The notes under the pieces: generated by a model
Told to the model about the DNA's origin: nothing
What the model saw: only the letters and a program-made list of their open reading frames with translations
Databases searched by the model: none
Program-made: the position numbers and the translations under genes
Assembly (NCBI GenBank): GCA_016235065.1
Contig: JACRMB010000004.1
Location: 3,629 to 67,628 of the forward strand
Direction of reading: 5' to 3'
Source: Actinomycetota bacterium
GTDB lineage: Bacteria > Actinomycetota > Thermoleophilia > BMS3ABIN01
Length of the DNA stretch: 64,000 bases
Shown here: positions 22,986 through 34,094 of the stretch, piece by piece
Layout of the letters: each line of letters starts with the position of its first letter
Numbering within the stretch: position 1 is the stretch's first letter

Positions 22986-24026
22986 ATGGCCTCATCCGAA
23001 TTCATCAGCGGCAATCCCAGCCTTGAATGCAAATATGGCGAGAACGGCTACCAGACGCCCGCAGCGTTGTATAGCGGCGGCACCGCCGATCCGCTCGCCA
23101 TGGACAGGTTCGATGTGGTCCAGGGGACCGCTCCCAGCTACAACAATCTCTGCGACCTGGACCGTCTGCTCCAGACCTCTACCCATATAGCTGCTGGTTT
23201 CGATGTGAACAGCGGCGTGGTGCCGCGCATCGCCGTCGCCTGCAAGCACGGCAATCCCTGCGGCGGCGCGGCAGGCGACGATGCGGCGAAGGTCGTCATG
23301 GCCGCGCTTGAAGGCGATCTTCGCGCGGTCTTCGGCGGCCTGGTGCTACTCAACTTCCAGGTGGACGAGGAGATCGCCGAAGTGCTGATGACCCACAAGA
23401 TGGACGCCGGCGGCCGCCGGCTCCTGGACGGCATCGTCGCTCCTGGTTTCACCGCCGGAGCCATGGAGATGCTCGAGCGCAAGGGTGATAAATGCCGCCT
23501 GCTGGCCAACCCGGCCCTGGAGAACATGGACCGGGGATCTCTCGACGCGGCGCAGCGTTTCCGTTATGTGCGCGGCGGCTTCCTGGCTCAGCCGAACTAC
23601 ACTTTCGTGCCGGAGCTTATGTCCGGAGCGGTGGAGAGGACCGGCGAGGCCAGCGACCGCCAGGTCGGCGACATGATCCTCGCCTGGGCGATCGGTTCGA
23701 CATCCAACAGCAACACGGTGACCATCGTGCGTGAGGGAATGCTTCTCGGCAACGGCGTCGGCCAGCAGGACCGGGTCGGCGGCTGCAAGCTCGCGGTGAT
23801 GCGGGCGAAGGATGCCGGCCATGACACCAGCGGCTCGGTCGCTTACAGCGACAGCTTCTTCCCCTTCGTCGACGGGCCGACTGAGCTCGCGGACGCCGGT
23901 GTCGAAGCTATAGTGGCGACCAGCGGCTCTATCCGTGACGATGAGGTGAAGGAATTCTGCCAGGGCAGGGGGATCACCCTGTTCCTGTATCCCGATTCCG
24001 CGGGACGAGGTTTCTTCGGCCACTGA
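22986..24026 (+). CDS. AICAR transformylase-domain protein (PurH C-terminal domain homolog, standalone)
   Basis: KYGENGYQ, KHGNPCGGA and AYSDSFFPFVDG...ATSGSIRDDEV match the PurH formyltransferase domain; no IMP cyclohydrolase/MGS domain. Confidence 0.7.
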   Translation: MASSEFISGNPSLECKYGENGYQTPAALYSGGTADPLAMDRFDVVQGTAPSYNNLCDLDRLLQTSTHIAAGFDVNSGVVPRIAVACKHGNPCGGAAGDDAAKVVMAALEGDLRAVFGGLVLLNFQVDEEIAEVLMTHKMDAGGRRLLDGIVAPGFTAGAMEMLERKGDKCRLLANPALENMDRGSLDAAQRFRYVRGGFLAQPNYTFVPELMSGAVERTGEASDRQVGDMILAWAIGSTSNSNTVTIVREGMLLGNGVGQQDRVGGCKLAVMRAKDAGHDTSGSVAYSDSFFPFVDGPTELADAGVEAIVATSGSIRDDEVKEFCQGRGITLFLYPDSAGRGFFGH

Positions 24027-24067
24027 GCACATCTGTAGGAAAAAACTGAACACCAAAACATCACAGG

Positions 24068-24100
24068 ACCGCTCCCATATGGGGGCGGTTTCTTTTACTC
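24068..24100 (+). terminator. candidate rho-independent terminator after the PurH-like gene
   Basis: ACCGCTCCC-atat-GGGGGCGGT hairpin (one mismatch) followed by TTCTTTTACT. Confidence 0.4.
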
Positions 24101-24141
24101 AAACCAAATCACCTCTTGACACCGAATGCCCCTTGATTTAT

Positions 24142-24194
24142 TCTACGCCGTAGATTAGTATTTCTACATTGTAGTAAAGTTCCTACACCGTAGG
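24142..24194. promoter_or_regulatory. array of three related palindromes (CTAC-N1-3-GTAG), candidate TetR operator
   Basis: TCTACGcCGTAGA (24142..24154), TCTACAtTGTAG (24163..24174), CCTACaccGTAGG (24182..24194), each followed by ATTAGT-like sequence; 50 to 100 bp upstream of the tetR start. Confidence 0.45.
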
Positions 24195-24241
24195 ATTAGT
24201 CCCTGCTAGAACAGTCAGTTGTATCAGGAAGTGAGGCGAAG

Positions 24242-24955
24242 ATGGCACCACCAAGAAAAAGAGCTTCATCAGATGAAGGAAAGTCCCGCCCGGGGCTTAC
24301 CCGTGAAGCGATTATTGCCGCCGCCCTGGAGATAGTCGACAAAGAGGGCCTGGATGCCCTTTCCATGAGGCACCTGGGGTCCGTTCTCAAGGTCGACCCC
24401 ATGGCGATCTACTACCATGTGCCCAACAAATCGGCATTGCTCGACGGCCTCATGGAAGCGGTCATGTCCGAGATCGACCTGTCGCTGGACGATCCTTCAC
24501 AGCCGGGCCCTGAGCGCATCCGTGTGGCGGCCCACATGTATCGTAACGTGATGATGGCCCATCCCAACGCGGTCCAGGTGGTTGCCGTCCGTAACCTCAA
24601 TACTACGGAGTCATTCCGCCCGGTCGAATTCCTCCTTGGCGTTTTTGTCGAAGCTGGCCTTTCCCCGGCCATGGCCATGGCCGCAGTGGACATCTTCGCC
24701 CTGTTCGTCCGCGGCTTTGTCCTTTTTGAAACCGGTAAGACCCTGGCTGAAGAAGCCGCCTGTAAGGGATGTGAGGCTGCTGATCTCCTGAAACAGATAC
24801 TTCCAATGGACGAATTCCCGGTCATGTATGAAGTGATGGCAAAGACCCGCTTCAACACTGCTGATGAGGAATTCGATCTTGGCATCAGGGCTCTGATAAG
24901 GGGCATGTTCGAGACTTTCAATGAAAACGCTGAGCAAATCGAGGAGTGTGATTAG
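24242..24955 (+). CDS. TetR/AcrR family transcriptional regulator
   Basis: N-terminal HTH LTREAIIAAALEIVDKEGLDALSMRHLGSVLKVDPMAIYYHVPNKSALL. Confidence 0.85.
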   Translation: MAPPRKRASSDEGKSRPGLTREAIIAAALEIVDKEGLDALSMRHLGSVLKVDPMAIYYHVPNKSALLDGLMEAVMSEIDLSLDDPSQPGPERIRVAAHMYRNVMMAHPNAVQVVAVRNLNTTESFRPVEFLLGVFVEAGLSPAMAMAAVDIFALFVRGFVLFETGKTLAEEAACKGCEAADLLKQILPMDEFPVMYEVMAKTRFNTADEEFDLGIRALIRGMFETFNENAEQIEECD

Positions 24956-24957
24956 TA

Positions 24958-27218
24958 TGAGCCTGTCCACTGGAAAAGTAGCGGCAAAATGCGCCCGCCA
25001 TCCCTGGATGACGATCGGTGTCTGGCTTGTCATCCTCGTTGCCGCGATAGCCGCCTCTTCGATGCTTCTCAGCAGCGCACTGACTACCGAGATGAAGTTC
25101 ACCAGCCCCACTGAATCGGACCAGGGGTTCAACCTGTTGTCTGACAGGTTGCGGGGCCCTGAAAGGGTCAAGGAGATCGCAGTCGTGACATCGAAGGACG
25201 CCACGGTCGACGATCCCGCGTTCAAGGCGCAGGTCGACCTTCTGGCTCTTGACCTGATCGCACTGGGTAGCGATGTGGTCGAGGGCGGCACCTACTACTA
25301 TCAGTTCCGGGATGAGACCCTCGTCTCGAAAGATCGCCACACGACGATATTGCCGATCGTGATGGCCGGCACGATCGCCGACGCGATTGACAACGTCGAC
25401 CAGATCCACGAGGTGGCGGCGGACGCCGCCGAGCGCAGCGGTTACGAAATCGTCGTCACCGGCACCGCCAGCAGCAATGCCGAATCCAACCAGCTGTCCG
25501 AAAGCGATCTGCAGAAAGCCGAGCTGTTCGGCATTCCGGTGGCCATGATCATCCTGGTCGTCGTTTTCGGCACTCTGGTTGCCGCCGGACTGCCGCTGAT
25601 ACTCGCCGGTTTCTCGATCATCATTGCCATAGGTATCACCGCGCTGGTCGGGCAGCAGTTCGAGATGAGCTTCTTTGTGGTCAACATGATCACGATGATG
25701 GGCATGGCGGTCGGTATCGATTATTCGCTTTTCGTGGTATCCCGTTACCGTGAGGAGCTGCTAGCTGGGCGGGACAGATACGAGGCCATTGAGATCGCAG
25801 GTTCGACTGCCAGCCGGGCGGTACTGTTCAGCGGCATGACCGTGATCCTGGCACTGGCGGGGCTGCTGATCGTACCCATGAGCATCTTTTACAGCCTGGG
25901 CGCAGGTGCGATCTTCGTGGTGGCCGTATCCGTACTTGCTGCCCTGACACTGCTGCCTGCGGTCCTGGGACTGATGGGGGAGAAGATCAACAGCCTGAGG
26001 GTTCCCTTCATCCATAGCTATGAGGCCGGTCGTGAAGGCGGGGAGGGTGGCCGTTTCTGGGACTGGATCACCCGCAAGGTCATGGGCCGGCCGGTGATAA
26101 GCGCGGTGCTGGCGGTCAGCCTGCTGCTCCTGCCGGCGCTTTACTACTTTCAGATCGAGACCGGCGCCAACGGCATCAATGCCCTTCCGGCGGAATTCGA
26201 ATCCCGCAGAGGCTTTGAGATCCTTGACCGGGAATTCTCCTTCGGACTGGTATCACCTGTGGAGATCGTGATCGACGGCGACGTGAATTCGCCGGCCGTC
26301 AAGGACGCGATCGCCAGGTTGCAGGAAGAGCTCAAGGGTGATGAAGTCTTCTACGGGAATGGCCAAGTGCAGACCAACGACAGCGGCGACCTGGCATTGC
26401 TTTCAGTTCCGGTATCGGGTTCACCCGAGAGCGACCAGGCGACTGGAGCTGTCAAGAAGTTGCGCCAGGAATATATACCCCGGATATTCGCCGATTCGGG
26501 AGCGGATGTGAAAATCACGGGCGCCTCGGCCATGAACCTGGATTATTTCAACATGACCGACGACTACCGTCCCATCGTCTTCATCTTTGTGCTGGGACTG
26601 AGTTTCGTGTTGCTGACAGTCGTCTTCCACTCGCTGGTGGTGCCGCTGAAGGCAATCCTCATGAACCTGCTCTCGGTGGGAGCAGCCTATGGTCTGATCG
26701 TTCTGGTCTTCCAGGAGGGCATCGGCGCCAGCCTGTTCGGCTTCCAGCAGGTGCCGGTCATCGAAGCCTGGGTACCGATATTCCTGTTCTCGGTGCTTTT
26801 CGGCCTCTCGATGGATTATCACGTCTTCCTGCTGGGACGCATCCGCGAGAATTACGTGCTGACCGGCGACAACAGCGAGTCGGTGGCCTCCGGCCTCAGA
26901 TCGACCGGGCGGATCATCACTGGCGCAGCCCTTATCATGGTAGCTGTATTCAGCGGTTTCGCCAGCGGGCAGCTGGTCATGTTCCAGCAGATGGGTTTCG
27001 GCCTGGCGGTTTCGGTGCTGCTGGATGCCACCATCGTGCGGAGCGTGCTCGTGCCTGCGACTATGAAACTGCTCGGTGACTGGAACTGGTATCTGCCCCG
27101 CTGGCTGCAGTGGCTGCCGGATGTCCATGTGGAAGGGGGCGGCGGAGAGCCACGGGACGCTACTGTAGACAGCTCTTCAGTTTCCGGGCACACAGAGGCA
27201 GGGCTGCGCAGGCATTAA
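24958..27218 (+). CDS. MMPL family (RND superfamily) transporter
   Basis: Two 6-TM bundles with large extracytoplasmic loops; ATG at 24958 immediately after the tetR stop preferred over the ORF-track start at 24921. Confidence 0.8.
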
Positions 27219-27301
27219 ATCACTGGCCTGGCTGTTTATCTGGTCTTAATTGCCATGTATAATGAGGTTACTCAACCAATGGAACCTTTCTTGGGGGAAC
27301 C

Positions 27302-29953
27302 ATGCGGAGTAAATCCAGGCTGGTCCTGATTGCAGCGGTACTTCAGACAGCGCTTTTGATAGCCGTTTTCCTTCTGTCAGTAGATACCGCCACTGCTGGA
27401 TATCCAGGCATGATCCGGGTGTCAACAAACAGCAGTGGCGCCGAAGCGCACGGTGACCTGAGCTTCGCCTCGGCGGACTACAGAAGTTCTGCTATCAGCG
27501 GATCGGGTCGGTACGTAGCCTTCGAATCGCGAGCCACCGATCTGGTTTCTGGTGATACCGACGAACTCAGCGATATCTTTGTCAAGGACGCTGAGACTGG
27601 TGCGACTACGATGGTATCGACTGATTCTGCGGGCGCCGCGGTCTATTCTGAAAGCATAAGGCCATCGATTTCCACGGATGGACGTTTTGTCACGTTCACA
27701 TCAGATTCTCCAGATCTTGTAGCGGGCGATACCAATGGCGTCTCGGATGTTTTCCTGAAAGACACCCAGACGGGAGTGACCACCCGGATCTCAACCGATT
27801 CGTCCGGTGTTCAGGCGAATTCTTATGGGTTTTATTCTGCTATCTCAGGTGATGGGCGTTATGTGGCTTTCGAATCAGATGCAGACAATCTGGTTGCAGA
27901 CGACACCAATCAAGCAACAGATATTTTCGTCAAGGACACCCTAACCAGTGTGACTGCCAGGGTTTCCACTGATTCATCCGGCAACCAGGCCACGCGCACG
28001 GATACTCCCTGGTTCGGAAACAGCATCAACATGGCGCCGACGATCTCACATGATGGCCGCTATGTTGCTTTCCAGTCATTCGCCGAGAACCTTGCAGCTG
28101 GGGATGCAAACGGCTGCTGGGACATATTCATCAAGGATACTGTGACCGGAGGCACAACTATAGTATCTACCGACACAGCTGGCTTTCAGAGTAACTTCCA
28201 CAGCTATTATCCGTCTATCTCCGCCGACGGGCGCTATCTTGCGTTTGAATCCTGGTCCAACAACCTTGTCGCTGGTGATACAAACTATAGCTCTGATATA
28301 TTCCAAAAGGACATTCTGACAGGCGTTACCATGAGGGTCTCAACCAGTTCGTCAGGAGACCAGGGAGCCTACAATACTCCCTTTCTGGGTGGCGGTTCCT
28401 TCACACCGACGATCTCCGCCGACGGGCGATATGTCACTTTCATTTCCGAGGCTGCAAACCTGGCGCCTGGAGATGTAAACCGGGAGCGCGACATCTTCGT
28501 CAAGGACACAGTTACCGGCGCAACCGCGCTGGTCTCGTCCGACGCGGTGGGAAGAAACGGCATCGGCTACAGCTACGGCCCGGCCATTTCCGCGGACGGC
28601 CGCTACATTTCATTCCTTTCCGAAGATTACCTGCTGGTCCCTGATGACACCAATGCCGCCCGCGACTACTATAGAGCCCGTAACTCCCTCGCGACCAACC
28701 TCTATTTTCCCTGGTACGACAATCTCTACGGGCGCACCTGGCTGATGATGGCCAATCCAGCCGGCAGCAGGACCAGTTCTTACTATAACTTCCTGGAAGG
28801 CGACGCCCTGGATGCGAACATCTCTGTAGCTTCTGGCAGCACCGCATTTCGCCGCTATGATGGCCAGATGGGCGGGCCGGCGCAGTCCTTCGCTACCAAA
28901 TTCCAGCCTCTAGTCAGCGAGCGTTCGCTCTATGGCAGCTCATTCGAAGAGGTCTGGGCGACGCCTTACAAAGAACTGGATTCCCACTACTACTGGCCTA
29001 ATTATCTGGGTTCGTCCATGGACATGTGGGTGCTGGCTGCCAATCCTGAGGAGAATGGCGAGGCGATCCAGGTGGATCTGACCATTTTGACTGAAGGATC
29101 GCCCGGCACGCCGGTCACACAACAGCAGGTGATCCAGCCTGGGGATAGCTGGACCCCGATCGTTCCCGGACTTGCGGGCTATAGCGTTGAGGTCGAGGCT
29201 TACAGGGTGGGTGGTGCCCCGGACAATCCTGCCGACGCGCGCAAGGTGATCGCCTCCGAGCGCTCGCTGATGGCAGGCGCCTTCAACGAGATGCCGGGTA
29301 TCCCGGCGTCGCGGCTCAGCGATCACTGGCTCTGGCCCTGGTATGACAGTCTCAACAGCCTGGACTTCATCTGTGTCGGTAATCCCGGCAGCCAGCCGGT
29401 CTGGGTCTCTGTTTATGTGGGTGGCGTGCTCAGGGGTACGCCCCATCAACTTGCCGCAGGGCAGGTGCAAAACTGGGGCAGCTATCTGGAGAGGTACGCC
29501 GACGGTCCGGTGGAGGTATACGGCTGCGCCAACGGCTCAGTACCCTGTGATACTCCCGCTGACATCTATGCTTCGCAGGCTGTGGTATTCGGTCCTTCAT
29601 ATCAGGAGACGTCCGGAATCAGATATGAAGACCTGCTGCCGACAGCCCACTGGACCTGGTACGACATGAGCACGCCAGGCTCAGCTGATTGGGTTCTGGT
29701 TTCGAATCCAAACGATTACGAGATCTATTATGAGATCAGCATGCCCGGCCTGGATACAGCCGGGGACATTCGCGCCCATGGGATCCTTGGGCCGGGAGAC
29801 ACAGTTACTCCCACATTCCCTGGTTTTATCGGTGGCCCGGTCCAGGTAAGCGCCTGGCGTGATTCCCAGAAGAACGTGACTGCGAGCATATACAGTTCGC
29901 AGCGGGTTCTCTGGAACGGCTATTTCAACGAGCTGACTGGTTTGGGCTTTTGA
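27302..29953 (+). CDS. secreted protein: N-terminal TolB-like (PD40-type) beta-propeller repeats plus four copies of the shared ~105-aa C-terminal repeat module
   Basis: Signal peptide; repeated GRYVAFES.A.NLV.GDTN...DIFVKD blades; C-terminal repeats (about 28683..29950) with WPWYD, WVLVANP, GGPVQV and ASQRVLW motifs. Confidence 0.8.
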   Translation: MRSKSRLVLIAAVLQTALLIAVFLLSVDTATAGYPGMIRVSTNSSGAEAHGDLSFASADYRSSAISGSGRYVAFESRATDLVSGDTDELSDIFVKDAETGATTMVSTDSAGAAVYSESIRPSISTDGRFVTFTSDSPDLVAGDTNGVSDVFLKDTQTGVTTRISTDSSGVQANSYGFYSAISGDGRYVAFESDADNLVADDTNQATDIFVKDTLTSVTARVSTDSSGNQATRTDTPWFGNSINMAPTISHDGRYVAFQSFAENLAAGDANGCWDIFIKDTVTGGTTIVSTDTAGFQSNFHSYYPSISADGRYLAFESWSNNLVAGDTNYSSDIFQKDILTGVTMRVSTSSSGDQGAYNTPFLGGGSFTPTISADGRYVTFISEAANLAPGDVNRERDIFVKDTVTGATALVSSDAVGRNGIGYSYGPAISADGRYISFLSEDYLLVPDDTNAARDYYRARNSLATNLYFPWYDNLYGRTWLMMANPAGSRTSSYYNFLEGDALDANISVASGSTAFRRYDGQMGGPAQSFATKFQPLVSERSLYGSSFEEVWATPYKELDSHYYWPNYLGSSMDMWVLAANPEENGEAIQVDLTILTEGSPGTPVTQQQVIQPGDSWTPIVPGLAGYSVEVEAYRVGGAPDNPADARKVIASERSLMAGAFNEMPGIPASRLSDHWLWPWYDSLNSLDFICVGNPGSQPVWVSVYVGGVLRGTPHQLAAGQVQNWGSYLERYADGPVEVYGCANGSVPCDTPADIYASQAVVFGPSYQETSGIRYEDLLPTAHWTWYDMSTPGSADWVLVSNPNDYEIYYEISMPGLDTAGDIRAHGILGPGDTVTPTFPGFIGGPVQVSAWRDSQKNVTASIYSSQRVLWNGYFNELTGLGF

Positions 29954-29988: not shown

Positions 29989-31239
29989 TCAACCTGAAGG
30001 CGCCACCGCCGGCGTCGCCGGCTGTACCGGCAATATCTGGCCGCAGGTGGGACTGGTCGGCTTGCCGTTGAAACGATCGTCCAGCCACATGGTCACTGTC
30101 GGTCCCGAGACTTTGGCCGCTACCTGGTGGCCGATGCCGCCGAACCACATCGTGGTCAGGTTTGAGCCGGCATCGCATGAGCGTTGAACATAAAGCATCG
30201 TGGTGTTCGGCAGCACTACCTGGTCGTCCAGGCCCTGGGCGATCAGCAGCGGCTGGTCCGGCGGTAGCACCGCAGGGGTCTCACTAGTGGAAGCGCTGTA
30301 CCATGCCGGAAACGTGACCGGATTGTTCTGGAAGAAGTCCTGCCCGAGCTCTTTCCTTATCAGGGCTTCGTCTCCACCCTTCGCCAGGCAATCATTGGCC
30401 ATGGACTCATACCTTTTCTGCCCCGACGAAGATATGACGTCGTCGACGGGGATATCCGGATAGACGCCGGGCCAGGCGACCAGGACCTCGGGTCCGATGA
30501 CCCAGCCTACAACCGACTGGTATTGCTCGGAAAACAGCGTCGCCAGTTCGGCGGCAGGTGCGGCGGCAGCCGTCGCGACAAGGTCCAGCTCGGGAGCGTA
30601 AGACTCTGATTCCATGGCAGTGAAGAGGGCCGCGTGGCCTCCCTGGGAGTGCCCCCAGACGGCATATTCCTTTCCCGCATACGCGGCTTCGACCCGCTGA
30701 GCAGCCCGGACGGAATTGATGACATCCCTGGCTTCGTCACGGCCGACCAGATAGCGCTCGGTGCCCGGCGTACCGAGGCCGGCGTAATCGGTGGCGGCTA
30801 CCACCCAGCCGCGCGCCAGCATCTCCGAAAGCCAGCTCATGTCCCCGATCGGATCCTCGGTACGCGACGGGGCGCAGGCGTCGCCCATCCCCACGGTCGG
30901 ATGAGCCCAGGCGACTACTTTGCGTTTTTCCGCCGGTGCCGGCCCCTCCGGGTAGAAGACCATGCCGGACGAGGCGGTCATCGTGCCGTCAGACTGCTGG
31001 CTGAGATAAAGGACACGCACTCCCTGTCCGCCGCCGGGAATCGAAACATCCAGCGGTTCCTGGCTGATGATCGTGCCGGGAGCTCCGGCAGGCAGGGGTG
31101 ATGGCGGGGCATAGAAGGATTCGAGAGTTTTTTGCCTCTCGTCCTCCTTGATATCTTCACGGCCGACCTTTATCGCTAACGCGAACAGGGCAATGAGTAT
31201 CACTACTCCAACAGCGGTCAATAAACGGTGTCTTGCCAC
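29989..31239 (-). CDS. secreted/membrane-anchored alpha/beta-hydrolase (lipase-like)
   Basis: GHSQGG nucleophile motif; N-terminal signal-anchor; GTG at 31239 (GAAGG RBS) preferred because the ORF-track start at 31335 overlaps the kinase gene. Confidence 0.6.
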   Translation of the reverse strand: MARHRLLTAVGVVILIALFALAIKVGREDIKEDERQKTLESFYAPPSPLPAGAPGTIISQEPLDVSIPGGGQGVRVLYLSQQSDGTMTASSGMVFYPEGPAPAEKRKVVAWAHPTVGMGDACAPSRTEDPIGDMSWLSEMLARGWVVAATDYAGLGTPGTERYLVGRDEARDVINSVRAAQRVEAAYAGKEYAVWGHSQGGHAALFTAMESESYAPELDLVATAAAAPAAELATLFSEQYQSVVGWVIGPEVLVAWPGVYPDIPVDDVISSSGQKRYESMANDCLAKGGDEALIRKELGQDFFQNNPVTFPAWYSASTSETPAVLPPDQPLLIAQGLDDQVVLPNTTMLYVQRSCDAGSNLTTMWFGGIGHQVAAKVSGPTVTMWLDDRFNGKPTSPTCGQILPVQPATPAVAPSG

Positions 31240-31310
31240 GAAGCCAGCCTTCGGTTTTGCGTTCAAGTCATTCCTCCTGAATCGATTCTGATGACAAAGC
31301 AGGCAGACAG

Positions 31311-34094
31311 CTAACTTTCGTTCAGCAGCTCCCATATTTTTTTCAGGATGATCTCCCTCGAATAAGGCTTCTGCAGGAAAGGATATTCGCGCTCATGGAT
31401 GTTTTCCTGCCATTCGATCTCGCTGTAGCCGCTGGCGAGGAGTACGCGCAGGCCGGCTTTTTTCTTCAGCAGCCGGTCGACGAGCATGATCCCGTTTTCC
31501 TGAGGCAGCACCACATCGCTGAAGACAAGATCAAAATCTCCCCGGGCTTCGTCAAATAGCGACAACGCTTCCTCGGCGCTGGCAGCGGTCGTGACGGCAT
31601 ACCCTGCCTTTACCAGGATCCTTTCAGCCAGCTTCCTGACAGTATCTTCATCCTCGACCAGCAGGATCTTTTCTCCCCGTCCCGTCAACTGCGCGGGAGG
31701 GGTCACTTCCTTCACAGTGTCTTCTTCCGTCAAGGGGATGACCGGGAGAAAGAAATAAAGGGTGGAGCCGCGACCAGGATCGCTCTCAACATCTACCCAG
31801 CCTTCATGGTGGGAGATTATGCCGTAGACCACGGAAAGGCCCAGGCCGGTGCCCTGGGCTGCGCCCTTGGTGGTGAAGAATGGCTCATACATATGTGCGA
31901 TCGTCTCGGCGTCCATGCCGCTACCCTCGTCCCTGACGGAGATGCGGACGAATTCTCCTTCCCGGGAATCGGCGTGGGCTTCGGCGTACTTTCTGTCCAC
32001 CGGGAAGTTCTCTGATCTGATCTCGATCTTCCCGCCGTCAGGCATGGCATCCCTGGCATTGACTGCCAGGTTCATGATCACCTGCTGGATATGTGATTTG
32101 TCTGCGCTGACTGTCTTGAGATCCGGTGCGAGGTCGGTAGTCAACATGTAGCGTTCGCCAATGAGCCTCCTGAGCATCTTCATGGCGTCGGTTATCAGTG
32201 CGTTCAGGTTTGTCGGCGCCGGATGCATGGCTTCCTGACGGCTGAAGATCAGCAGCTGCCGGGCCAGGTTGGCGGCGCTCTCGGAAGCCTTGCGTGACTC
32301 CAGCAGTTGCCCATATTCAGCGCTCTCCTCGGGAAGCTCAGTCAACACCAGGTCCGTATAGCCCTCTATGACTGTGAGGAAGTTATTGATGTCATGGGCG
32401 ATCCCTCCCGCCAGCCTGCCGACGGCCTCCATCTTCTGGGCCTGGAGCAGCTGCGCGCGCAGGCTTCTCCGTTCTACCTCAGACTTTTTGCGGTCAGTAA
32501 CCTCCCTGACCGCCTCTATCCCGCCGATTATCTCTCCCTCGGAGTTCCTCAGCGGCGATGCGGTTATTTCGAAATAATGATTACCGTCAGGGAAGACTAC
32601 GGTCCTTTCAGTAAAGTGGATCTTTCCGTCGGCCATCGCCATTGCGACCGGACACCCTTCACAGGCCCCATCCCGCTTTTCATATCCGTTATAGCAATAT
32701 TCCCCTACGTGATCACCGATAAAATCCCGGTGGACCTGGTTCTGGAACAGGACTTTCAGGTCGGTATCCTGGATGCTTATCCCGTCACCGATCCCCTCGA
32801 TGATCGCCCGGTTCTTCTCCTTTTCGTCCTCAGCGAGCTTAAGTGCTTCCTTAAGGGATGCTTCAGCAGTTATGCGTTCAGTGATGTTCTGGGCCGTGCC
32901 GCGCAGCCCTGTGATCGCGCCGGTGGTGTCATGTTTGACTTCACCGCGGGCTACTATCCATCGGCGAGTTGCGTCGGGCTGGGAAAGTTCCAGATCGAGC
33001 TCATAAGGCTCGCCGGTCTTCATGGTCTCTTCGACCGAAGCATTGAGCCGGGCGGCGCTTTCCGGCGTATAGATCCTGAGATGTTCCTTGTAGTTGGGCG
33101 AAGGCTTCGCCGGATCGAAGTTCAGTATGTGATACAGCTCCTCTGACCAGAAAGTGGCGTCGGTAACGGCATCCCAGTCCCAGTTGCCGATCTGCGCGAT
33201 CTGCTGCGCCTCCTTGAATTGCTGCTCGCTTTCAGAGAGCGTTTCTTCCGCATGCCTGCGCTCGGTCAGCTCGACCTGCAGCTGCCTGTTTGCATCCTGC
33301 AGTTCTCCTGTCCTCTCTTTGACACGGACCTCGAGGTCATCCCTTGACCGGCGAAGTTCCAGCTCACCGCGTCTTTGCCTGACAGCCCCCAGGGAGATTC
33401 CAGCGCAACCGGTGAGCCAGATAAGCGAATATATGATGCCGGCCTGCTTCTTCTGAGAATCCGCATGGGCCGCAACCTGAGAGAAGGGTATCGAGATGCT
33501 GACGCCGCCGCGGATGTCACCCTCCTGATAGCCCTGTCCGGCATGGCATTTCAGACAGGGTTTTTCGGTGACCATGGGCCGCATCAGGCGCAGATAGGGC
33601 TGGCCGTCGATCTGCTCGATCGAAGTGACTTCAGTCTGCCCCTCATCGAATGCCCTGAGGGCGGTCGTTTCCCACTGGTCTGCTGCATTCCCGGGACGGA
33701 TCGGATTCAGGCTGGTGATATGGCCAAAAACATCGCCTTCGGCAGCGGCAAGTTCGTTTACCTGCCGGGTCATGTAAGCGGGATTCATGAGTGTCAGCTG
33801 CTTGCCGGATGGTGTGACGATATCCCGCTCAGGTATTTGAGTAAGATATGGATTAGAAGGAGTCTGCGCTGAAACCGGAACATAGACTCCGCCGTGCGAA
33901 GCGTTCCAGCGGCGATAGAGCACGTCCTTTTCCCAGACCACGCTGGCCCGGGTGACGGCTTCGTCTTCGGCCTGCTGATCGATCTCGCTGGCGCTCAAAA
34001 AATAGATGACCACCATTATCGCCGTCCAGCAGACGGCAAGCAGCGTCGCATACCGTGCGGCGCGGGTATATCTATTCCTTATTGTTTTCAGCAT
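31311..34094 (-). CDS. hybrid sensor histidine kinase with periplasmic CxxCH (heme-c) sensor domain, PAS domains, HisKA, HATPase_c and C-terminal receiver
   Basis: TM1, ~150-aa periplasmic domain containing KPCLKCHAGQ (CxxCH at 33543..33557), TM2, PAS repeats, AHDINNFLTVIEGYTDL (H-box), GTGLGLSVVYGII (G2 box), receiver ILLVEDEDTVRKL...DLVFSDVVLP. Confidence 0.85.
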   Translation of the reverse strand: MLKTIRNRYTRAARYATLLAVCWTAIMVVIYFLSASEIDQQAEDEAVTRASVVWEKDVLYRRWNASHGGVYVPVSAQTPSNPYLTQIPERDIVTPSGKQLTLMNPAYMTRQVNELAAAEGDVFGHITSLNPIRPGNAADQWETTALRAFDEGQTEVTSIEQIDGQPYLRLMRPMVTEKPCLKCHAGQGYQEGDIRGGVSISIPFSQVAAHADSQKKQAGIIYSLIWLTGCAGISLGAVRQRRGELELRRSRDDLEVRVKERTGELQDANRQLQVELTERRHAEETLSESEQQFKEAQQIAQIGNWDWDAVTDATFWSEELYHILNFDPAKPSPNYKEHLRIYTPESAARLNASVEETMKTGEPYELDLELSQPDATRRWIVARGEVKHDTTGAITGLRGTAQNITERITAEASLKEALKLAEDEKEKNRAIIEGIGDGISIQDTDLKVLFQNQVHRDFIGDHVGEYCYNGYEKRDGACEGCPVAMAMADGKIHFTERTVVFPDGNHYFEITASPLRNSEGEIIGGIEAVREVTDRKKSEVERRSLRAQLLQAQKMEAVGRLAGGIAHDINNFLTVIEGYTDLVLTELPEESAEYGQLLESRKASESAANLARQLLIFSRQEAMHPAPTNLNALITDAMKMLRRLIGERYMLTTDLAPDLKTVSADKSHIQQVIMNLAVNARDAMPDGGKIEIRSENFPVDRKYAEAHADSREGEFVRISVRDEGSGMDAETIAHMYEPFFTTKGAAQGTGLGLSVVYGIISHHEGWVDVESDPGRGSTLYFFLPVIPLTEEDTVKEVTPPAQLTGRGEKILLVEDEDTVRKLAERILVKAGYAVTTAASAEEALSLFDEARGDFDLVFSDVVLPQENGIMLVDRLLKKKAGLRVLLASGYSEIEWQENIHEREYPFLQKPYSREIILKKIWELLNES

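Follow-up and report, generated by a model that had tools for sequence, protein, structure and literature searches.

The tetR gene of this locus and the gene of an MMPL-family exporter behind it are preceded by three related palindromes, and the question is what reads these palindromes and with which consequence for the two genes. The window designates here the whole stretch of DNA that was analysed (64,000 bp). Several readings were weighed: a functionless repeat, a target of another DNA-binding protein, a structure acting in the RNA and a site of activation. We consider it highly probable that the three palindromes (O1 to O3) are operators for dimers of the downstream TetR-family repressor, which would shut off the tetR-MMPL promoter until it is released by a ligand.

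The palindromic array and its gene context

The palindromes read TCTACGCCGTAGA (24142-24154), TCTACATTGTAG (24163-24174) and CCTACACCGTAGG (24182-24194). They share the core CTAC-N3-GTAG, of which the window contains three exact matches (24143-53, 24164-74 and 24183-93). The cores are all included within 51 bp, and their centres (24148, 24169 and 24188) are located 94, 73 and 54 nt 5' of the tetR ATG (24242). The window sequence and the core count thus bear out the preliminary description, which had reported three related palindromes at these positions, 50 to 100 bp upstream of tetR. A repeat search returned the three cores as one direct-repeat family with start-to-start distances of 21 and 19 bp. 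When extended to the 17 bp of the family consensus TTCTACNNNGTAGAA (derived below), the sites are the following, separated by gaps of 4 and 2 bp:

24140..24156 (core 24143-24153, centre 24148): operator O1, ATTCTAC-GCC-GTAGATT, 1 mismatch to the consensus
24161..24177 (core 24164-24174, centre 24169): operator O2, TTTCTAC-ATT-GTAGTAA, 1 mismatch to the consensus
24180..24196 (core 24183-24193, centre 24188): operator O3, TTCCTAC-ACC-GTAGGAT, 2 mismatches to the consensus

O1 is the closest of the array to the family consensus. In dinucleotide-preserving shuffles of the window, CTAC-N3-GTAG was found 0.44 times on average, and at least three matches were obtained in 1 of 100 shuffles. From this rate, a chance origin of three cores within 51 bp is negligible. 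Further regulon members were searched in the window with relaxed patterns: at 1 mismatch, CTACNNNGTAG gave 18 matches for 11.7 expected, three of them being the known sites, and TTCTACNNNGTAGAA at up to 3 mismatches gave 18 matches for 11.9 expected, which is the chance level. Because of the shuffle counts and of these chance-level relaxed matches, the cluster is regarded as unique in the window and as non-random.

These counts bear directly on the possibility that the palindromes are functionless, either a product of chance or the debris of a repeat such as a mobile-element remnant. The small size of the motif, and nothing else, speaks for such debris, but 0.44 matches are expected per 64 kb against three observed within 51 bp, the window holds no more copies, the matches with 1 to 3 mismatches stay at the chance level, and the sites are kept in orthologues and across phyla (see below). 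We regard this explanation as vanishingly improbable.

Each palindrome had also been described as followed by an ATTAGT-like sequence. Such tails are present (TTAGTAT 3' of site 1, TAAAGT 3' of site 2 and ATTAGT 3' of site 3), but they do not constitute a separate element or an independent repeat. They are made up of the flanking bases of the half-sites (GTAGAtt, GTAGGAtt) and, at site 1, of the conserved -10 hexamer TAGTAT; past the half-site, the tail of site 3 is not kept in the orthologues.

The array is included in the following gene context:

22986-24026: AICARFT/IMPCHase-like gene (346 aa), upstream of the array
24066..24091, + strand: intrinsic terminator of the AICARFT/IMPCHase-like gene, detected by terminator scan (11 pairs and a T-run)
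24233..24236, + strand: Shine-Dalgarno-like GAGG, 5 nt 5' of the tetR ATG, read from the sequence
24242..24955, + strand: tetR, a SimR/ActR-like TetR-family repressor of 237 aa with a basic N-terminal arm (PRKR...K.R)
24957..27218, + strand: gene of an MMPL-family (RND-type) membrane exporter (753 aa, Pfam MMPL 1.6e-93)
27302..29953, + strand: PD40/beta-propeller (Tricorn-like) gene (883 aa)

The hairpin at 24066..24091 is kept in both syntenic orthologues (L001 and L022, presented below) and is the upstream limit of the regulatory region. The upstream protein, which is 91-92% identical in these two loci where the gene is also followed by the conserved terminator, matches the AICARFT/IMPCHase profile only at positions 76-310. 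A PurH-like enzyme, either stand-alone or truncated, seems to be encoded here.

In a public contig of identical sequence (L060), an independent gene call places the start of the MMPL gene at window position 24957, 1 nt past the tetR stop codon; for this reason tetR and the MMPL gene are taken to form an operon, with the exporter gene as the probable co-transcribed target of the repressor. The exporter matches the NCBIfam "actII" MMPL subfamily model with a score under the cut-off. In the classification of Ahn et al., TetR-family genes co-transcribed with their neighbour are a minority compared to the divergent ones (PMC3511530), and the window repressor gene falls in this minority. The PD40 gene may be a third, uncertain member of the operon since no terminator-like site was found on the + strand between the MMPL and PD40 genes, the first one being located at 27627, inside the PD40 gene.

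Two observations concern the downstream region. The 83-nt gap between the MMPL and PD40 genes (27219-27301) contains TATAAT at 27258-63. A secretory-lipase/alpha-beta-hydrolase gene on the - strand (29989-31335) converges on the PD40 gene, and in a distant locus (L013:923-2182) an alpha/beta-hydrolase gene is co-transcribed with the tetR homologue. The presence of a hydrolase near the repressor gene in both cases may be a coincidence or a recurring functional link.

The predicted repressor and the conservation of the motif

The 237-aa protein displays a Pfam TetR_N domain (29.2 bits for a cut-off of 24, residues 24-68) and a TetR_C_1 domain (55.5 bits for a cut-off of 21), the all-helical C-terminal domain for ligand binding and dimerisation. 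Its sequence matches in the PDB are ActR (9e-19), SimR (1.6e-14) and then the tetracycline repressors. These Pfam and PDB sequence matches settle the predicted assignment to the TetR family.

The operator OX of SimR is TTCGTACGGTGTATGAA (PMC3241653). In the SimR complex, the bases are contacted by Arg51 (G11), Met62 (T12 and A13) and Tyr66 (methyl groups of T1 and T2), while the arginine-rich N-terminal arm contacts the minor groove; the contacts span 21 bp (PMC3241653). Full-length alignments of the window repressor to ActR, SimR and TetR(G) were realized. The HMMER alignment places the window residues S41-M42-R43, M54, Y57-Y58 and K63 in register with S49-M50-R51, M62, Y65-Y66 and K71 of SimR. 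The 18 residues ahead of the core domain include R5, K6, R7, K14 and R16. Basic N-terminal arms are common among the homologues, and the site positions +-8 and +-9 are A/T-rich. The protein is thus predicted to be a repressor with SimR-like recognition, alike in the mode of recognition and not in the operator sequence. As to the proposal of an operator for a TetR dimer, the family stands, but repressor and operator are SimR-like rather than Tn10-TetR-like.

The relatives of the repressor were collected by peptide patterns, one of which is DPMAIYYH, and comprise 21 loci from a one-genome-per-species scan and 34 loci from a metagenome scan. The DNA motif was no part of the selection. The invariance of the recognition helix in the distant loci is partly built in, because the search patterns include DPMAIYYH.

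Two syntenic orthologues with the gene order AICARFT-tetR-MMPL were found. In a Thermoleophilia MAG (L001), TetR and MMPL are 69% and 86% identical to the window proteins and three CTAC-N3-GTAG sites are present with spacings of 21/18; in a metagenome contig (L022), the identities are 62% and 84% and the three sites are spaced by 21/19. Conservation of the palindromes upstream of orthologous tetR-MMPL pairs, which the preliminary description had proposed as a check, is therefore observed in 2 of 2 cases. The three-way alignment of the intergenic regions reveals that the sites, a TTGAyw -35 box and the -10 box form the only long conserved block, CCCTTGAyww-ATTCTACnnnGTAGATTAnTnTTTCTACAnnGTAGgAAnaTTCCTACAnnGTAGGAyT, and that the sequences are diverged elsewhere.

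The distant relatives share 25-50% identity and originate from Actinomycetes, Coriobacteriia, Eubacteriales, Terracidiphilus, Spirochaetes and Pseudomonadota. TetR homologues with the same helix carry the motif in front of their own operon in at least 5 phyla, with one to three copies per locus. Across 54 loci of TetR relatives, 49 sites are concentrated in the 15 kb just 5' of tetR, compared to 25 in the other 224 kb, and most of these 25 are pairs located before an upstream operon whose last gene is tetR. The neighbours are diverse: a divergent FMN-reductase/flavodoxin-like pair, an ABC and ABC-2 operon ending in tetR, a divergent flavin amine oxidase or an alpha/beta-hydrolase. Since the neighbouring genes differ between loci, the repressor is the common factor of the loci containing the motif.

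From 65 non-identical sites, we have defined the symmetric 17-bp consensus wTTCTAC-RNY-GTAGAAw. Positions +-6 are T/A in 90% of them and positions +-1 are purine/pyrimidine in 96%, and TAC-N3-GTA is present in all three window sites and in 65 of the 65 family sites. Only the three tetR-MMPL loci have the array in its tight triple form; pairs (19 clusters) and singles (11) dominate elsewhere. In each of the three orthologues, both halves of O3 are off consensus at +-6 (C/G instead of T/A), as is O2 in its right half (G in L001 and L022, T in the window). These deviations may reflect a graded affinity or a need for cooperativity, and because of them an equal occupancy of the three sites is not assured.

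An exact site is missing in 16 of the 54 loci, most of which are short contigs. A relaxed motif search in these 16 loci gave no convincing degenerate site, with one 3-mismatch match near the tetR start of L034. In several of the short contigs, tetR is probably the last gene of an ABC-ATPase and ABC-2 permease operon whose promoter would lie beyond the contig end. One locus is an unexplained exception to the association of motif and repressor: L032 (5352 bp, tetR at ~2947) encodes the same recognition helix and shows no exact or near motif in the 2.9 kb upstream. In another locus, a single consensus site TTTCTACGTTGTAGACC (L011:2333-2343) precedes a gene of 613 aa located ~2.4 kb from a truncated tetR homologue; this gene could be an extra regulon member.

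A cross-check set was built from plasmid homologues of cultured actinobacteria, detected by tblastn without use of the helix peptide. Mycobacterium branderi, Kocuria rosea and Streptomyces longhuiensis display the helix DPM(A/G/S)LYR(H/Y) and have CTAC-N3-GTAG upstream (3/3). The plasmid homologue of Tsukamurella tyrosinosolvens (L059:2430-2480), with the helix EAMSLYNH, is accompanied by two ACTTAC-N3-GTAAGT sites (TTAC-N3-GTAA), which looks like a co-variation of protein and DNA at position +-5. Because the tblastn homologues keep CTAC-N3-GTAG and the one with EAMSLYNH has TTAC-N3-GTAA, the motif appears to follow the repressor and to shift with its helix.

These observations bear on a different assignment, according to which the sites serve an unlinked DNA-binding protein, for instance of GntR or MarR type, and the adjacent TetR binds elsewhere. 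In favour of such a protein, cores resembling GT-N-AC are found in the operators of other families. But the TetR homologue is the sole gene common to the motif loci across phyla, the core is what the conserved SimR-type contact residues read, and the homologue with the altered helix has the altered motif TTAC-N3-GTAA. We consider an unlinked regulator very unlikely. The reading as a multi-site TetR operator, put forward from the first inspection, gains support from the conservation in orthologues, the co-occurrence of motif and repressor and the overlap with the promoter.

A full-text literature search with the exact motif variants and CTACNNNGTAG gave only primers and unrelated uses. In NCBIfam there is no dedicated model for the repressor, all matches being far under their cut-offs. 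As far as the literature covered goes, the repressor clade and its consensus operator appear to be undescribed.

Candidate promoters and geometry of the putative operators

Two promoter-like sequences overlap the array:

24116..24144, + strand: P1, a strong sigma-70-like match, TTGACA, 17 nt, TATTCT (10/12 in the consensus scan)
24133..24161, + strand: P2, -35 TTGATT (24133-38), 17-nt spacer, -10 TAGTAT (24156-61)

The -10 box of P1 is the left flank of O1. P1 is present in the window, its -35 box is missing from both orthologues in the three-way alignment, and the same layout is found in L023. P1 was rejected as sole promoter, not being conserved in L001 and L022. P2 is a weak match to the consensus (8/12) and is for this reason absent from the list of the promoter scan. 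It is kept in position, the same alignment columns being occupied by TTGACT / TAATCT in L001 and by TTGACA / TATTCT in L022. The 17-nt spacer of P2 is made up almost wholly of O1. The predicted start point of P2 is near 24168, a point covered by O2, and O3 lies just downstream; a transcript from P1 would begin near 24151, in O1. There may be two tandem promoters 17 bp apart, both overlapped by O1.

The centres of O1, O2 and O3 are located near -20, +1 and +20 under P2, and near -3, +18 and +37 under P1, so the access of the polymerase is predicted to be blocked under either promoter. The suggestion that the array controls both tetR and the MMPL exporter is consistent with this geometry, the sites overlapping both candidate promoters, and with the MMPL gene beginning 1 nt past the tetR stop.

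Two layouts are found in the family. In the first one, the operator fills the -35/-10 spacer (centre near -20) and a second operator is placed over +1, as in L008 (TTGATA-tTTCTACgttGTAGATA-TATAAT). An operator in the spacer is also found in L007, L008, L009, L013, L022, L040, L048-51 and L053-54. In the second one, the half-site GTAGAAT gives the -10 box TAGAAT (centre near -15), and one operator serves in this way on both of its strands where the genes diverge, as in L002.

Two groups of loci illustrate these layouts. In divergent tetR/FMN-reductase regions (L002:3870-3935, also L003, L006, L012 and L024), the single operator ATTCTACaccGTAGAAT appears to give a TAGAAT -10 box to two overlapping opposite promoters, TTGACA-16-TAGAAT and, on the complementary strand, GTGACA-17-TAGAAT; at a distance of 31 bp, the start of the reductase transcript is covered by a second operator. 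In loci of the Spirochaete type (L007:2200-2260, L008:2240-2290, L038, L039 and L051), tetR is the last gene of an ABC-ATPase and ABC-2 permease operon, and two operators lie ~1.75 kb 5' of tetR at the operon promoter, in the order TTGATA-operator-TATAAT-operator.

A few TetR-family proteins, such as AtrA, are activators (PMC3511530), and the window TetR might act at these sites as an activator or dual regulator instead of a simple repressor of the operon. The positions of the sites argue otherwise: for each candidate promoter of the window and of the relatives, the spacer between -35 and -10, the -10 box and the start point are overlapped by sites. This is the geometry of repression, whereas activators normally bind upstream of the -35 box. 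Activation seems to us a highly improbable role.

The location of the array in the 5' leader of tetR-MMPL also allows a reading at the level of the RNA, in which three small hairpins would act on the stability of the transcript, on attenuation or on translation. Folding of the region 24140-24245 is better than that of its shuffles (z-score -2.9), and the transcript would include O2, O3 and part of O1 if it starts from P1. This z-score is, however, what any set of palindromes gives, and hairpins of 4-6 bp with 3-nt loops are weak. Under the conserved promoter P2, O1 is upstream of the start point, and in divergent loci the same sites are located within two promoters and between them. The stems never change (CTAC/GTAG in 65/65 sites) and show no covariation; the variation is confined to the 3-nt centre and follows the symmetric R-N-Y that would be expected of a protein binding DNA as a dimer. 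Rfam, scanned over 23900-24400, returned nothing on the array, the one weak match (E = 0.36) being on the upstream terminator. An action through the RNA is in our view extremely unlikely.

The repressor reading gives the following model. One dimer would bind each site, the Arg of helix 2 and the Met and two Tyr of helix 3 recognising the TAC-N3-GTA core as in SimR, with the basic N-terminal arm probably placed in the A/T-rich minor groove of the flanks. The abutting operators would cover ~57 bp of the tetR-MMPL promoter, from the -35/-10 spacer to roughly +29. Because the SimR contacts span 21 bp, three dimers would be packed edge to edge over this length. Since the operators cover the promoter, bound repressor would keep RNA polymerase off and silence its own gene and that of the MMPL exporter. 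A small molecule, probably the substrate of the exporter or a compound close to it, would detach the repressor from DNA by binding to its C-terminal domain, a step that we infer solely from the behaviour of the family. The likely mechanism, as read from the DNA and the protein, is a ligand-relieved autorepression by promoter occlusion.

Significance and comparison with known systems

A broader reading can be proposed, tentatively and as an idea that we hold, as a whole, to be somewhat unlikely. It sees in these loci a portable promoter-operator cassette carried by a TetR subfamily across phyla and wired to unrelated genes. In this joint proposal, a near-invariant helix VDPMAIYYH would recognise the 17-bp ATTCTAC-RNY-GTAGAAT, which would fit a 17-nt spacer exactly or give the -10 box TAGAAT from its half-site, and in divergent regions would supply TAGAAT on both strands at once. 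The cassette would be wired to MMPL, ABC-2 pump, FMN reductase and amine oxidase genes, and the triple array of the MMPL lineage would give a cooperative, switch-like control.

The analysis provides a regulatory model for the uncharacterised MMPL exporter of an uncultured Thermoleophilia-like actinobacterium. What is new is, on one hand, the 17-bp operator consensus for a widespread and unnamed clade of SimR-like TetR regulators and, on the other hand, the lineage-specific triple array on the tetR-MMPL promoter; the switch itself is an ordinary one of a well-known type, and the understanding of TetR-family regulation is unchanged. With the consensus, target prediction for the regulators of this clade becomes possible in many genomes. 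Repressor and operator are also a candidate orthogonal pair for engineering, since a standard 17-nt promoter spacer accommodates the operator.

Among the characterized systems, SimR of Streptomyces antibioticus, the repressor of simocyclinone efflux (operators OX/OR, PDB 3ZQL), resembles the window system in its TetR_N and TetR_C_1 domains, in its basic N-terminal arm and in its 17-bp palindromic operator with a TAC-N3-GTA core, a 3-bp centre and G-T-A at positions 11-13. The contact residues (Arg of helix 2, Met and Tyr-Tyr of helix 3, and the Lys to the backbone) are kept in register, and more than one operator is present at the exporter promoter. The outer half-site differs, being TTCGTAC in SimR OX and ATTCTAC in the window (G and C, respectively, at -5). 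SimR has two operators in a divergent simR-simX region with an MFS pump, whereas the window has three abutting operators and a co-directional tetR-MMPL pair. On the whole, the two proteins have a low similarity (E = 1.6e-14).

SAV576 of Streptomyces avermitilis belongs to the TetR family and represses its own gene, whose promoter region contains three related 15-bp palindromes CCRTAC-RVY-GTATGS (PMC3742746). Compared by operators alone, it shares with the window the TAC-RNY-GTA core and the number of three sites; the flanking bases are different, and the sites belong to a bidirectional promoter region controlling a P450 gene, not an exporter.

ActR of Streptomyces coelicolor (actO/actAB, PDB 2OPT) is the closest solved structure to the window repressor by sequence (9e-19). 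ActR keeps an export operon repressed until the compound that is exported, or precursors of this compound, cause its release (PMC3482498). Compared by protein and not by operator motif, ActR differs in that its recognition helix has neither the Met nor the second Tyr; its gene is divergent to the target and there is one operator region.

The Tn10-type TetR has the same family and type of C-terminal domain and shares the principle of multiple palindromic operators that overlap the promoter and of ligand-induced release. The tetO half-sites are TCTATCA-N-TGATAGA, which are longer and have another sequence and half-site spacing than those of the window, and the genes are divergent with two operators ~30 bp apart. 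With the NCBIfam TetR equivalog NF010319, the window repressor obtains 83 bits for a cut-off of 265, a score that does not indicate orthology to Tn10 TetR.

The operon of MSMEG_3765 resembles the ABC-ABC2-tetR arrangement of L007 and L008; it was considered as a characterized relative and dropped, its 36-bp operator being unrelated (PMC10663510).

The control of an MMPL pump by a TetR-family protein already has a precedent in MAB_4384 of Mycobacterium abscessus, which represses the MMPL-family exporter MmpS5/MmpL5 through a palindromic operator, as proposed for the window; MAB_4384 differs in that its genes are divergent and its only operator, of 27 bp, consists of two 13-nt repeats separated by 1 nt (PMC5895659). 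By its predicted repressor and operators, the window system belongs among the autoregulated exporter switches of the TetR family, and there to the SimR/ActR type.
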